Positions 53,167-59,886 of a DNA stretch of 64,000 bases are shown in pieces. The notes under the pieces are model-generated. The model searched no databases, was not told the origin of the DNA, and saw only the letters and a program-made list of their open reading frames with translations. The DNA comes from Escherichia coli (lineage in GTDB: Bacteria; Pseudomonadota; Gammaproteobacteria; Enterobacterales; Enterobacteriaceae), in the NCBI RefSeq assembly GCF_002854065.1, contig NZ_CP024147.1, one strand, 5' to 3'. Numbering within the stretch: position 1 is the stretch's first letter; every line of letters starts with the position of its first letter. Made by a program: the position numbers and the translations under genes.

Positions 53167-54028
53167 TGGAGCACCTCAAAAACACCATCATACACTAAAT
53201 CAGTAAGTTGGCAGCATCACCAACCGTCCCGACGCCTGCAGCTTGAGTACCTAATCTTAAATAGCCTCCATCGACGTGACCCTTCTGTTTAATATTCAGC
53301 GTCCCCGTTCCGGATTGACCCACATTTAAAGGCCTTGCATTATTTCCGCTATCATACAATCGCCAGGTGCCACCCAAAACATTAACGGTGCCCTCTGAGT
53401 CCTCATTAGCGCCAATGACGCTGGTAGTAATAGTGGTTAAGGAGGCATTACCGCCAGCCAAAATATTAAGCACTCCAGTGCCATACCAGCCAACCAGGTA
53501 GGCATCATAAGCAACATCAGTATCAATATTTGTAATCTGACCATTATCAACTTCAAGACTTGCACCAGACGCTGAACCGCTTAGTGCCAACAAAACACCC
53601 AGCGTCAATCTACGGAATTTCGTTGTCAGTCCAGAGGATTTACGCAAATTAACCATTGATGTTTTACCTACCCTGCGAGTTAATTCCGAGCAGGCCTGAA
53701 ATACCTGTAGGGTGCAATTCCATATCACGCGATAGATTCTATTCATATAAACGCTCCATATACAAACAATACAGCCTCGAAAGAAATGAGTCGTCAGACA
53801 TTAAAAATGAAACTTATTAAATTGTCAGAGGTCTGTATTGGGGGAACCGCAGAATTCGGAAAAAATCGTACGCTAAGCTAACGGTGTTCTCGTGACAGCT
53901 CTTTGACTAGGCTTTCTAAGGCCATTCTGATAGCCCTGACTTCCTGAAAAGCCATGGCTAAAATTTGTGCGGCTAAAAGGGATAACCGATGGTAAAGTAA
54001 GTTATCCCTGTCGAGATACTGAAAAGCG

Positions 54029-55606
54029 TTATCCTCGTTTTTCCCAAAACTGTTTTGCCAGTTCGCTCAGAGCGCTAGTTAACTGAGCGACAGATTTCGC
54101 ACTTTGCAAATTATTCTGCCCGGTCTGTACATTGGTATCAGCAGCATCGCGTATATTGATAATACTGCGGTTTATGTCTTCACTTACTGCTCCCTGCTGC
54201 TCGACCGCAGTCGCTATTTGCGCGTTCATGTCGGTAATTTCGTTAACGCGTTGGCCAATTCCATCAAGAGCTGTAGCTGCTTCCTCTGCGTGAGCTACAC
54301 TCGTGTGCGCTTGCCGACTACTTTGCTCCATGACTGTAACAGCGGATTGCGCTCGCTCTTGTAGAGCGCTGATCATGCTTTGAATATCCGTTGTCGATTG
54401 CTGTGTGCGAGCAGCAAGACTGCGAACCTCATCGGCGACAACAGCAAAACCACGCCCCTGCTCACCAGCACGCGCGGCCTCAATTGCTGCGTTGAGTGCC
54501 AACAAATTCGTTTGCTCGGCGATCCCTCGTATAACGTCAAGAACTTTTGATATCTCGTTACTTTGACCTTCAAGCTCATGAATAACCTGAGTGGCTTGCC
54601 TAATTTCACCTTCAAGGGCAGTGATTGACTGGCTTGTGTGGGCTACCAGACGCTGGCCAGATGCCGTCTCAGTGTCTGCTCTTCCGGCCGCATCTGCAGC
54701 ATGCTGTGCATTGCTCGCAACCTCTTGAATGCTTGCCACCATTTGGTTTACTGCCGTTGCTATTTGATCTGTCTCTGCCTGCTGCTCAACTGTAAGTACA
54801 TTGCTTGACTCAATATCCTTTAGTAGGCCTCGGGTGTGTTCGCTAAGCCGATTTGATGCATCACCTATGCGACCTACTATGGCGCCTGTTTCAGCTTGCA
54901 TCATTCGTAAAGCAAACTCTATTTGGCCAAACTCATCGGTGCGCCCAGTGTAGAGGGATTGACTTAATGGGTTATTGGAAATATTCCTGGCTCTTTCAAC
55001 CAGTCTTCCAAGAGGAGAGAGAATAGCCAAAACACTAACAGAGCTTAAGCTTCCTGACATTAAAGTGGCTAACAATAAGCTGCTTATTGATGTATCAGTA
55101 AGCATGCCGGCAGCCATTGCGCTTGATATAATACTACCCCATATGAGCAAGAGTATTTTCACGGAAAAGCTAGCAGCCAATTTCGGCCTCGCGGCCTTCC
55201 CGCTTCTCAATTGAGCATATAATTTTTCCGCAGCCAAAACCTGCTCAGGTTCAGGCTTGGTCCTTACAGACTGGTATTCAACAATCGAACCATTCTTAGC
55301 TATTGGCGTTACATAAGCACTTACCCAATAGTGGTCGCCATTTTTACAGCGATTTTTTACTAGCCCCATCCATGAGCGGCCAGATTTTAATGTACTCCAC
55401 ATATGCTCAAATGCAGCAGGCGGCATATCTGGGTGTCTTACGATGTTGTGAGGCTGGCCTAATAGTTCTTCCTCAGTGAAACCACTGATTTTAATGAAGT
55501 CAGGATTAACGTACGTGATATGGCTTTGAGGGGAGGTAGTCGAAAGAATATTGGCATCTTTTGGGAGTTCTAAGTTTCGACCCGTCACTGGTAAATTCTG
55601 GCGCAT
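54029..55606 (-). CDS. Aer-like PAS-domain methyl-accepting chemotaxis protein (transposon passenger gene)
   Basis: 525-aa ORF. N-terminal PAS region (…[50 protein letters not shown]…) resembles E. coli Aer as I recall it; central hydrophobic hairpin; C-terminal MCP signalling domain (…[34 protein letters not shown]…). Confidence 0.85.
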
Positions 55607-55739
55607 AAGAACCTCAAGGGTTGGCTGTTTTATTTTATTGTTTTCGGCATTAAGCCCAATTTCTTGAGCGTTACGATAAAGCTAGCATGGAAACGATAGG
55701 TGCAAGCAAGTTAAGGGTTGCATCGCGCATGTCAATCTA

Positions 55740-56476: not shown

Positions 56477-56479
56477 CAC

Positions 56480-59446
56480 ATGCCGCGTCGCTTGATCCTC
56501 TCGGCCACGGAGCGGGACACCCTGCTTGCGCTGCCGGAAAGCCAGGATGACCTGATCCGCTACTACACCTTCAACGACTCCGACCTGTCGCTGATCCGCC
56601 AGCGACGCGGCGACGCCAACCGCCTCGGCTTCGCCGTGCAGCTCTGCCTGCTGCGCTACCCCGGTTACGCGCTGGGAACCGACAGCGAGCTGCCCGAGCC
56701 GGTCATCCTGTGGGTGGCGAAGCAAGTCCAGGCCGAGCCGGCGAGCTGGGCAAAGTACGGCGAGCGCGACGTGACCCGTCGCGAGCATGCCCAGGAACTG
56801 CGCACCTACCTGCAACTGGCCCCGTTCGGCCTGTCCGACTTCCGCGCCCTGGTGCGCGAGCTAACCGAGCTGGCCCAGCAGACCGACAAAGGCTTGCTGC
56901 TGGCCGGTCAGGCCCTGGAGAGCCTACGGCAGAAACGACGCATCCTGCCGGCGCTGAGCGTGATTGACCGGGCCTGCTCGGAAGCCATTGCGCGAGCCAA
57001 TCGGCGGGTCTACCGCGCCCTGGTCGAACCACTCACGGACTCGCATCGGGCCAAGCTGGACGAGCTGTTGAAGCTCAAGGCCGGCAGCAGCATCACCTGG
57101 TTGACCTGGCTGCGCCAGGCACCGCTGAAACCCAACTCTCGGCACATGCTGGAACACATCGAGCGGCTGAAGACATTTCAGTTGGTGGACTTGCCCGAAG
57201 GCCTGGGCCGGCACATCCACCAGAACCGCCTGCTCAAGCTGGCCCGCGAGGGTGGGCAGATGACGCCCAAAGACCTCGGTAAGTTCGAGCCGCAGCGCCG
57301 CTACGCGACCCTGGCCGCCGTGGTGCTGGAGAGCACCGCGACCGTGATCGATGAGCTGGTCGATCTGCATGACCGCATCCTGGTCAAGCTGTTCAGCGGC
57401 GCGAAGCACAAGCATCAGCAGCAGTTCCAGAAGCAGGGCAAGGCGATCAACGACAAGGTGCGCCTGTACTCCAGGATCGGCCAGGCGCTGCTGGAAGCGA
57501 AGGAAAGCGGCAGCGACCCCTATGCCGCCATCGAGGCGGTGATTCCCTGGGACGAGTTCACCGAGAGCGTCAGCGAGGCCGAGCTGCTGGCCCGGCCGGA
57601 AGGCTTCGACCACCTGCACCTGGTCGGCGAGAACTTCGCCACCCTGCGCCGTTACACGCCGGCCTTGCTGGAGGTGCTGGAACTGCGCGCCGCGCCGGCC
57701 GCGCAAGGCGTGCTGGCAGCCGTGCAGACCCTGCGTGAGATGAACGCCGACAACCTGCGCAAGGTGCCGGCCGATGCACCCACGGCCTTCATCAAGCCGC
57801 GCTGGAAGCCGCTGGTGATCACCCCGGAAGGCCTCGACCGGAAATTCTACGAAATCTGCGCCCTGTCCGAGCTGAAGAACGCCCTGCGCTCCGGCGACAT
57901 CTGGGTCAAGGGCTCGCGGCAGTTCCGCGACTTCGACGACTACCTGCTGCCGGCCGAGAAGTTCGCCGCACTCAAGCGCGAGCAGGCCCTGCCCCTGGCG
58001 ATCAACCCGAACAGCGACCAGTACCTGGAAGAGCGTTTGCAGCTGCTGGACGAGCAGTTGGCCACCGTCACCCGCCTGGCCAAGGACAACGAGCTGCCCG
58101 ATGCCATCCTCACCGAGTCAGGGCTGAAAATCACCCCGCTGGATGCGGCGGTGCCGGATCGGGCGCAGGCGCTGATCGACCAAACCAGCCAGTTACTGCC
58201 GCGCATCAAGATCACCGAACTGCTGATGGACGTGGACGACTGGACGGGCTTCAGCCGCCACTTCACCCACTTGAAGGACGGGGCCGAGGCCAAAGACAGG
58301 ACGTTGCTGCTGTCCGCAATCCTCGGTGATGCGATCAACCTCGGGCTGACCAAGATGGCCGAGTCGAGCCCCGGCCTGACCTACGCCAAGCTGTCCTGGC
58401 TGCAAGCCTGGCACATCCGCGACGAAACCTATTCGGCGGCCTTGGCCGAGCTGGTCAACCACCAGTATCGCCACGCCTTTGCCGCCCACTGGGGCGACGG
58501 CACGACCTCATCCTCCGATGGCCAGTGCTTCCGCGCGGGTGGCCGGGGCGAGAGCACCGGGCACGTCAACCCGAAGTACGGTAGCGAGCCGGGACGGCTG
58601 TTCTATACCCATATCTCCGACCAGTACGCGCCGTTCAGCACCCGCGTGGTGAATGTCGGCGTCCGCGATTCCACCTATGTGCTCGACGGCCTGCTGTACC
58701 ACGAGTCCGACCTGCGGATCGAGGAGCACTACACCGACACGGCCGGCTTCACCGATCACGTCTTTGCCCTGATGCACCTGCTAGGCTTCCGCTTCGCGCC
58801 GCGCATCCGCGACCTCGGCGAAACCAAGCTGTACGTGCCGCAGGGCGTGCAAGCCTACCCGACGTTGCGCCCGCTGATCGGCGGCACCCTGAACATCAAG
58901 CACGTGCGTGCCCACTGGGACGACATCCTGCGCCTGGCCAGCTCGATCAAGCAGGGCACCGTCACCGCCTCGCTGATGCTGCGCAAGCTCGGCAGCTACC
59001 CGCGCCAGAACGGACTGGCCGTGGCCCTGCGCGAGCTGGGCCGGATCGAGCGCACGCTGTTCATCCTGGACTGGCTGCAAAGTGTTGAACTGCGCCGCCG
59101 CGTGCATGCCGGCCTGAACAAAGGTGAGGCGCGCAACTCGCTGGCCAGGGCGGTGTTCTTCAACCGCCTTGGGGAAATCAGGGATCGGAGCTTCGAGCAG
59201 CAGCGCTACCGGGCCAGCGGCCTCAACCTGGTGACGGCGGCTATCGTGCTGTGGAACACGGTGTACCTGGAACGCGCCACCCAGGGGTTGGTCGAGGCCG
59301 GCAAGCCGGTGGACGGCGAGCTGCTGCAATTCCTGTCGCCGCTGGGCTGGGAGCACATCAACCTAACCGGCGATTACGTCTGGCGGCAGAGCCGCAGACT
59401 GGAAGACGGGAAGTTTCGGCCCTTACGGATGCCCGGAAAACCTTAG
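56480..59446 (+). CDS. tnpA: Tn3-family transposase TnpA
   Basis: 988-aa ORF; stop codon lies inside the right terminal IR, as is typical for this family. Confidence 0.9.
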
Positions 59447-59886
59447 CGTACGATTTTTTCCGAATTCTGCGGGCTCCCCTGTATTGAGTGTTAGTTGGAG
59501 GTGGGAAGGTGTCAATTTGGCTAATTTGCTAATACTTTCGAATTGATAGATTAAAAATTGCATAGTTCTTATTTTATTTAAAAATGAACTATGAGTTATT
59601 GTTGCTTAATAAGAAAACTGTTTCTTTCAATAGGAAAATTATCATCATCATATTTAACAAAGAATGGCACTAATTGCTAAAAATCGAAGTTTATTAAACC
59701 CCTTTTGCATCCATTAATGTCTTTAGGAATATTCGTTATAAAATAAGGGTTATGCTTAATGCTTTAAGAAAAATAGCAATTTCCCCTTGAATATATTACT
59801 GGTGATGGAAGGATGAATCTGCAAGCTGGCATTTAACAAGCCAGTTCTAAAAGAAGGGAAATAAGAATAACTATACTCAAAAACTA

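Follow-up and report, generated by a model that had tools for sequence, protein, structure and literature searches.

The window analyzed here, a 64,000-nt stretch of the Escherichia coli chromosome, carries a complete Tn1722 that most likely entered the space between an autotransporter gene and lsrK by replicative transposition in one lineage. The choice of region is best explained by a bias of the transposase, TnpA, toward the replication terminus through its binding to DnaN. We place the probability of this reading at about 90%.

Table 1. Features of the element and its surroundings (window coordinates).
Feature	Position	Strand	Remarks
dif, chromosome dimer resolution site	45639..45666	-	all 28 nt match exactly; 100 shuffles gave no such match
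ECSE_1600-family autotransporter gene, IS1-interrupted	47549..53746	-	aligns with the intact 5,421-nt CUWW06 gene apart from IS1
IS1, 768 bp, within autotransporter gene	52455..53222	.	9-bp duplication AACCGTCCC
TGTATT, left target-site duplication copy	53834..53839		6 bp
Whole element	53840-59479		5,640 bp
IRL, left 38-bp terminal inverted repeat	53840..53877	+	GGGGGAACCGCAGAATTCGGAAAAAATCGTACGCTAAG
mcp, chemoreceptor-like gene, 525 aa	54029..55606	-	PAS, HAMP and MCP signalling domains
mcp-tnpR intergenic region, presumed res site	55607..55915	.	placed upstream of tnpR; identical in other copies
tnpR, serine resolvase, 186 aa, GTG start	55916..56476	+	Pfam Resolvase PF00239 (2.9e-39) and HTH_7 PF02796
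tnpA, Tn3-family DDE transposase, 988 aa	56480..59446	+	stop codon inside right repeat
QLCLLR, a QLxxLR DnaN (beta-clamp) binding motif, TnpA codons 54-59	56639..56656	+	translation
Private C-to-T change, TnpA R683C	58526..58526	+	three residues after catalytic D680
IRR, right 38-bp terminal inverted repeat	59442..59479	-	reverse complement GGGGAGCCCGCAGAATTCGGAAAAAATCGTACGCTAAG
TGTATT, right target-site duplication copy	59480..59485		6 bp
lsrK, autoinducer-2 kinase, intact	59923..61515	-	ORF and annotation of homologous locus; stop 443 nt from the element's right end

The element is bounded by terminal inverted repeats that a repeat scan resolved as 38-nt arms, 35/38 (92%) complementary, with 5,564 nt between them. 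Both arms have the length of ~38 bp and the initial GGGG by which Tn3-family ends are recognized. The IRL sequence was found in 26 of the other copies compared when at most one mismatch was allowed; the copy in PSS-04 has no IRL. The gene order, mcp-res-tnpR-tnpA, agrees with the literature description of Tn1722, and the right repeat adjoins the duplication and chromosomal DNA directly, with no tet module and no third repeat. The original prediction described a 5.64 kb element with near-identical 38-bp inverted repeats, flanked by TGTATT and enclosing tnpR, a chemoreceptor-like gene and a 988-codon tnpA that ends inside the right repeat. Location of both arms, reading of both TGTATT copies and the open reading frames bear this out. 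The tnpR-tnpA half is GC-rich, as it noted, with computed GC contents of 0.656 for tnpR and 0.659 for tnpA, but the chemoreceptor half is not (0.475); the flanking intergenic DNA has a GC content of 0.307 and the whole window 0.491.

The sequence is identical at 5,639 of 5,640 bases to 21 other E. coli chromosomal copies, some of which form the left part of a composite Tn1721. In other chromosomes the composite consists of the Tn1722 unit, a tetR(A)-tet(A) module and a third repeat. The alignment to Tn1721 that had been proposed was run against such composites, and the single mismatch appears both with the IRL-to-IRRI unit of the BE2-5 composite, a Tn1721 of 11,128 bp, and with the 20 other copies. 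Judged from these alignments, made with copies in other E. coli chromosomes and not with the reference record X61367, the element corresponds to a complete Tn1722, the already known "minor transposon" (5.6 kb) of the Tn3-family element Tn1721, as had been predicted. It has the same 38-bp ends as Tn1722 (with 3 differences between IRL and IRR) and the same gene order, but this copy has one private base and a 6-bp, not a 5-bp, duplication. It lacks the tet module, the very feature by which Tn1721 differs from Tn1722. The NCBI annotation pipeline names the element "TnAs1 family".

The carried genes are those of a Tn3-family transposon with a chemoreceptor-like passenger. The mcp product matches Pfam PF08447, PF00672 and PF00015, and every one of its NCBIfam matches is under the equivalog cut-off. 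The gene coordinates agree with those annotated as WP_001323889.1 in other copies, and transcription is directed outward through IRL. The 309-bp spacer between mcp and tnpR is presumed to be the res site for cointegrate resolution, assigned only by its position and identity; a repeat scan of it resolved a single 10-nt inverted pair and no subsites. The coordinates of tnpR agree with WP_001161490.1, and its two Pfam domains mark the product as the serine resolvase expected in the Tn3 family. TnpA, a large DDE transposase of the expected ~1,000 aa, scores 1286.6 bits against NCBIfam NF033527 (cut-off 500), and its catalytic Asp column is conserved among relatives. It is homologous to the Tn4430 TnpA, whose structure has been solved (E = 6.6e-229). 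Tn4430, however, is a Bacillus element of clearly diverged sequence, and it uses a tyrosine recombinase (TnpI) instead of a serine resolvase.

The one private base lies in tnpA. All 23 comparable copies have C at this position, and no record of the exact R683C protein was found in a protein look-up. The change is in this copy alone, it falls within the conserved SSSDGQxF motif region close to D680, which aligns with the catalytic D679 of Tn4430, and Cys is absent at this column in all 143 relatives. These features could mean that R683C inactivates the transposase and that the copy is now immobile. We consider this unlikely. The column tolerates many side chains among the same relatives (R in 59, F in 37, N in 14, and also H, Y, S, A, Q and others), and the change could be a sequencing error. 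Because the column is so variable, R683C is not claimed as an inactivating mutation. R is also the residue at this position in Tn4430.

The insertion lies between dif and TerC, at a distance of 8.2 kb from dif, a position that the original prediction does not mention. TerC is farther out in the same direction, at 18.4 kb from dif; it was not found inside locus L018 on search and is sited 1.3 kb beyond it, between yneE and uxaB. At least 17 independent Tn1722/Tn1721 insertion events were found around dif, from -17 to +20 kb. A location-blind sample comprises 13 backbone sites from the listed matches, for which the ordering rule of tied matches is not established. Twelve of the 13 are about -100 to +200 kb from dif (binomial 6e-14; the more remote distances are estimates from the K-12 map, not computed) and six are within ~15 kb (1e-10). 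The clustering at the terminus is observational, and the shared ancestry of some genomes and the insertion tolerance of dispensable genes (lsr, fimbrial, pseudogene-prone) could inflate it. Orientation relative to dif is mixed among the orientation-blind cases; the 23-kb query joins same-orientation copies only. In nature, Tn1721/Tn1722 probably enters the E. coli chromosome predominantly in the ~40-kb stretch around dif/TerC, from yddB to tam/lsrFG; almost every backbone insertion outside this stretch is still no more than a few hundred kb away.

Two features associated with DnaN-targeted elements are present here: the insertion is in the replication-termination region, and the N-terminal part of TnpA has a QLxxLR motif, in which Q54, L55 and R59 have the same residue numbers as in Tang et al. 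(NAR 2024; PMC11417375). That study showed that TnpA-DnaN binding is required for Tn1721 transposition and that three of three chromosomal insertions mapped to ~25 kb at the terminus. The clustering near dif might reflect, instead of termination targeting, tolerance combined with a local preference for AT-rich targets: insertions would land everywhere and survive mainly where the DNA is dispensable and AT-rich, as in the hipBA-autotransporter-lsr locus. The target and all the duplications are indeed AT-rich, as is the intergenic DNA here, and the genes struck (lsr, fimbrial, autotransporter) are dispensable and often already pseudogenes. Yet AT-rich DNA that the cell can spare is common in other parts of the E. 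coli chromosome, while the location-blind sites are almost all near the terminus. Laboratory insertions that had undergone no long-term selection are also at the terminus, and a relative, Tn917, is reported to share this bias in hosts other than E. coli (both PMC11417375). We regard tolerance and target composition as a distinctly improbable account of the clustering.

The insertion is strain-specific and recent, in one E. coli lineage. Of 5,426 complete E. coli genomes, 3,996 have the empty site, where a single TGTATT is the norm, and the same junction was found neither in any of the 5,426 nor among metagenome contigs. Presence of the element at this position in ordinary E. coli genomes, which the original prediction had named as counting against it, is not what is seen: there the site is empty. 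The flank comparison proposed there was made with the empty site of CUWW06, whose flanks are 99.9% identical. CUWW06 has one TGTATT only, and the pair is therefore a genuine duplication of a 6-bp target. Tn3-family elements typically duplicate their target when they insert; an exact 5-bp length is characteristic but not strictly defining, and here it is 6 bp. Tn1721 has been described as making 5-bp duplications (PMC5736529, PMC11417375). Among 19 two-ended natural copies of the element the duplication is 5 bp in 14, 6 bp in four and 4 bp in one, so that 6 bp falls within the element's natural variation. As a secondary point, target cleavage probably does not always have a 5-bp stagger: the observed lengths span 4 to 6 bp, and about one event in five has 6 bp. 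A literature search for 6-bp Tn1722 duplications returned nothing relevant.

The element might have come by homologous recombination, already present in a chromosomal segment acquired by transduction or conjugation, and not by transposition in this lineage. E. coli chromosomal segments do recombine, and the flanks are nearest to one genome, CUWW06, while being ~98.7% identical to most others. But no donor-like genome with the junction was seen among the complete genomes or in the metagenome scan, and the duplication would still demand a transposition event at this exact site. Arrival by recombination has, in our estimate, only about as small a chance as the tolerance account of the clustering, or slightly less.

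Replicative transposition within the lineage would have followed the mechanism established for the family. TnpA would bind the 38-bp ends, nick them and join them to staggered cuts, 6 bp apart here, in an AT-rich target. Host replication would then fuse target and donor, the latter most likely a plasmid, into a cointegrate, which TnpR would resolve at res to leave one copy flanked by TGTATT. In keeping with the published property of Tn1721 TnpA, the QLxxLR motif would bind the beta sliding clamp (DnaN), giving a preference for plasmids and for the replication-termination region and hence a site near dif. The sequences themselves show the structure, the match to Tn1722, the vacant site and its duplication, the distance to dif, the motif and the clustered natural insertions; for this particular event we infer the transposition pathway, the dependence on DnaN and the donor.

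Three systems bear comparison. The Tn1721 of Tang et al. (PMC11417375) has the same TnpA apart from R683C, the same QLCLLR at 54-59, and insertions in the termination region; theirs, however, were three laboratory events, whereas here the insertions are in natural genomes and known from sequence. Tn917 of Firmicutes is a Tn3-family element with a reported hotspot at replication termination (cited in PMC11417375), but it has another host range and a distant sequence relationship. The TnsE pathway of Tn7 also directs insertions to conjugal plasmids and to the terminus region, by interaction with the beta clamp (PMC11417375). In contrast to Tn1722, Tn7 moves by cut-and-paste chemistry, its transposase system is unrelated, and it has TnsE as a dedicated target selector.

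The insertion is in intergenic DNA. The left end of the element is 93 nt upstream of the autotransporter ATG (53746), close to the ~94 bp predicted; the predicted severing of the upstream region has slight functional meaning, since the gene is separately broken by IS1 and its separation from a promoter hardly matters. IS1 was recognized as a 768-bp insertion relative to CUWW06, its ends and duplication were read, and insA- and insB-sized open reading frames are present. It is very improbable that the insertion is functionally important, whether because the autotransporter gene has lost its promoter or because it is now expressed from the chemoreceptor gene that reads outward in the same direction at so short a distance, for the coding sequence is broken by IS1 ~520 nt in, the family is often frameshifted in other genomes, and a search of the left junction for promoters and terminators gave no signal exceeding chance.

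The element itself is textbook, and the main value of the finding at this locus is in annotation: a strain-specific Tn1722 and an IS1 at one place. The wider interest is in the position. Public genomes hold enough independent chromosomal insertions of Tn1721/Tn1722 to test, with no new experiments, the 2024 proposal that transposases of the Tn3 family locate terminating replication forks by means of the beta clamp. If the stretch around dif and TerC is indeed the main natural entry site, a three-event laboratory hint would become a population-scale pattern, chromosomal capture of resistance genes borne by Tn1721, such as tet(A), would occur mainly at the terminus, and the AI-2 uptake (lsr) genes would be recurrently knocked out. 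If the pattern holds, it would predict where chromosomal Tn1721-derived resistance transposons are located and would provide a natural read-out of the place where replication forks meet in wild E. coli.

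The transposon between the autotransporter gene and lsrK has the 38-bp repeats, the length of about 5.64 kb and the flanking TGTATT exactly as the original prediction described. TGTATT lies directly outside both ends of the 5,640-bp element, and tnpR, tnpA with its stop codon in the right repeat and a chemoreceptor-like gene are all present (see table). The 988-aa protein scored 1286.6 bits against the NCBIfam Tn3-family transposase model (cut-off 500) and matched the solved Tn4430 transposase structure with E = 6.6e-229. Resolvase and HTH_7 domains were found in the 186-aa protein, and PAS, HAMP and MCP-signalling domains in the 525-aa protein, which reached no NCBIfam equivalog cut-off. 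GC content is 0.656 in tnpR and 0.659 in tnpA but 0.475 in the chemoreceptor gene, with 0.307 in the flanking intergenic DNA and 0.491 in the window. Composition thus varies along the element, a mosaic in which the predicted foreign GC-richness applies to the transposition module only.

Megablast gave full-length matches, reported at 100.0%, to hundreds of plasmid and chromosome records from Escherichia, Klebsiella, Salmonella and others; their genes are annotated as a "Tn3-like element TnAs1 family transposase", a recombinase and a PAS-domain chemotaxis protein. When 23 fetched copies were compared base by base, 21 showed a single difference; the remaining two add one private change each. Several chromosomes carry these 5,640 bp as the left part of composite Tn1721, with tetR(A)-tet(A), two more genes, a shortened tnpA and a third repeat to the right (11,128 bp with 5-bp duplication TCAAC in strain BE2-5). 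These composite copies agree with the published architecture (PMC5736529), in which a tet region is joined to a complete Tn1722 ("minor transposon"), the 38-bp repeat occurs three times and the direct repeats are 5 bp long. Being nearly identical to the left unit of Tn1721 and lacking a tet module, the window element is Tn1722, as proposed. The predicted structure is confirmed and its interpretation supported, the element being already known, with three corrections to the earlier reading: duplication length, GC content and the autotransporter gene.

At position 58526 the window has T and all 23 other copies compared have C, changing TnpA Arg683 to Cys (R683C). TnpA D680 aligns with the catalytic D679 of Tn4430, which also has Arg at the position aligned with R683, three residues downstream. 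In the family alignment the neighbouring S-S-S-D-G-Q and F hardly vary. Residue 683 itself is R in 59 of 143 family representatives, F in 37, N in 14, H in 9 and Y in 9, with others, and never C; the protein collection held no exact R683C variant. Because this column is variable, no claim of an inactive copy is made. The transposase may tolerate R683C or be mildly impaired by it, or the base may be a sequencing error.

Of 5,426 complete E. coli genomes, 3,996 matched an in-silico empty site (600 bp of each flank and one TGTATT) without a break. A 500-bp probe over the left junction matched none of the complete E. coli genomes at 80% coverage or more, and the exact 34-nt junction was not found in the metagenome collection. 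The insertion is recent and strain-specific. The nearest genome, CUWW06 (99.9%), reads GTCAGAGGTC-TGTATT-GAGTGTTAG. Since TGTATT occurs once in this empty site and twice in the filled one, the target duplication is 6 bp. Among 19 two-ended natural copies of this element, the duplication is 5 bp in 14, 6 bp in four (window, TGTATT; FORC_042, TATATA; 13C1079T, TATCCG; LR882493, TTTATA) and 4 bp in one. One and the same element gives duplications of 4 to 6 bp, CUPF12 marking the lower end. The 6-bp stagger, at 4/19, is thus a minority but recurrent outcome and no argument against membership; a literature search on 6-bp duplication for Tn1722 found nothing relevant. A weak target consensus is hinted at by the first bases, T or TA in most duplications. 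TACTA was duplicated twice independently, in tam of A10 (L018 19705-19709) and lsrB of ET210 (L019 20574-20578). In 63-2 and T28R (L011/L013; 4996-5000) the DNA to the left of the Tn1721 copy in trg ends in TATCT, the five bases found every time after the internal repeat IRRI within Tn1721; this match is probably a coincidence.

The insertion does cut the autotransporter gene off from its upstream DNA, as predicted, but this carries little functional weight because the gene is already broken by IS1 about 520 nt into the coding sequence. Apart from this 768-bp insertion it aligns to the intact CUWW06 gene. The IS1 is a second, independent mobile-element insertion at the locus. A promoter scan at the junction gave nothing above chance, and lsrK is intact in the window.

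The chromosome dimer resolution site, dif, falls within the window, 84 nt past the end of an ORF (45750..47129) which we take to be hipA. In strain A10, TerC (ATATAGGATGTTGTAACTAATAT) is found in the yneE-uxaB interval, at 18.4 kb from dif towards lsr with the transposon there subtracted. The window element is 8.2 kb from dif on the same side and was therefore inserted between dif and TerC.

A 23-kb query from dif to lsrA reached at least 80% coverage in 28 genomes and 76% in one more (empty genomes, about 75%); these 28 + 1 genomes have a same-orientation element in this neighbourhood. Opposite-orientation cases were found by other searches. Junction analysis resolved 17 distinct, independent insertions of Tn1722/Tn1721 near dif, which mark the neighbourhood as a natural hotspot for the element.

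Features of the window and related loci, and insertions near dif. L-handles are fetched loci of other E. coli genomes; kb values are each genome's own distances from dif (negative, ydeP side; positive, lsr/TerC side).
Feature	Position	Strand	Details
Terminal inverted repeats, 38 nt	53840-53877 and 59442-59479		35/38 positions complementary
Chemoreceptor gene	54029..55606	minus	ORF, 525 codons
tnpR	55916..56476		ORF, 186 codons, GTG start
tnpA	56480..59446		ORF, 988 codons, stop codon within right repeat
dif	45639-45666		exact match
Autotransporter gene, ECSE_1600 family	47549..53746	minus	aligned to intact 5,421-nt CUWW06 gene
IS1, 768 bp	52455-53222		9-bp duplication AACCGTCCC; insertion vs CUWW06, IS1 ends
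TAAT, 4-bp flanking match	L029 8263-8266 and 13907-13910		CUPF12 Tn1722 copy in autotransporter gene
dif-adjacent accessory DNA	L030 about 5200-30850		T16R
dif-adjacent accessory DNA	L029 1-2854		CUPF12
dif-adjacent accessory DNA	L005 1-1035		EH08-18-36
PSS-04	-16.7 kb		yddB; truncated element
EC42405	about -13 kb		adjoins yddB; Tn1721; distance from K-12 map
T16R group	-10.5 kb		within integrase-bearing island
PEC408	-2.9 kb		ydeR
19SZHZ869Rt	-2.7 kb		ydeT usher
ET565	-2.3 kb		Tn1721, without duplication
FORC_042	+1.8 kb		autotransporter gene
CUPF12	+5.2 kb		autotransporter gene
S1-CAM-01-A	+7.3 kb		autotransporter start
EH08-18-36	+8.1 kb		lsrK
Window copy	+8.2 kb		autotransporter-lsrK intergenic
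ST540	about +8.4 kb		autotransporter-lsrK intergenic; Tn1721
13P460A	about +8.8 kb		lsrK
ET210	+14.7 kb		lsrB
LR882493	+15.2 kb		lsrD
A10	+17.1 kb		tam
E2 group	+20 kb		lsrF/G

FORC_042 (L002 6159-8009) retains only the N-terminal part of hipA and has a stop within lsrK; decay of the dif-flanking locus recurs across different strains. ET565 has a full Tn1721 (L017 7187-18308) that lacks a matching duplication; the fetched stretch has no annotated hipBA, and the autotransporter gene is missing its C-terminal end. This combination suggests a transposon-associated deletion or rearrangement. In the E2 group (L016 23179-32535) a different Tn3-family transposon, with a 2,886-nt tnpA and a recombinase, abuts Tn1722 at the end of lsrF and is followed by IS1133; this compound insertion is common to about 12 poultry isolates. 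In T16R (about 25 kb, including a type I restriction-modification system), CUPF12 and EH08-18-36, accessory DNA directly beside dif/hipA encodes one or two site-specific integrases and may be a dif-adjacent integrative element.

A less biased sample was taken from the chromosomal records in the top 60 full-length matches to the element alone, with no selection by location, the order of ties being unknown. It collapses to 15 distinct sites. Two are within other mobile islands (ZF34, LHM10-1), possibly carried in passively, and one is in an IS1 beside tnaC, near oriC. The other 12 lie in backbone genes near dif: ydcF, trg, ydcK, yddE, yddB, ydeT, an island by hipA, the autotransporter gene, the autotransporter-lsrK spacer, lsrK, the Qin prophage and hemP/aroH (sites in EC21Z-063 and EC71 assigned from the feature column alone). 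On the K-12 map these 12 cover a stretch reaching about 100 kb from dif in one direction and 200 kb in the other. The binomial probability of 12/13 backbone sites falling in a 300-kb target of 4.7 Mb is 6e-14, and that of 6/13 within 30 kb is 1e-10. Survival bias in dispensable DNA may contribute to this clustering.

Targeting of the terminus has a published basis. A QLxxLR motif (Q54, L55, R59) mediates the binding of Tn1721 TnpA to DnaN and is needed for transposition (Tang et al., NAR 2024, PMC11417375). In their mating-in assay 30/33 insertions were into a plasmid and the three chromosomal ones all fell in a ~25-kb stretch at which replication terminates; the authors advised caution over so few events and likened the pattern to Tn917 (PMC11417375). 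Translation of the window tnpA gives QLCLLR at residues 54-59, the same residue numbers, so the published behaviour has a natural example in the window insertion. Replicative transposition, resolvase-mediated resolution and clamp-linked terminus targeting are the established mechanism for Tn1721/Tn1722 itself. The terminus bias is thus not new in principle, and what the genome survey contributes is no new phenomenon but support at the scale of the population, with natural insertions set beside the three laboratory events.
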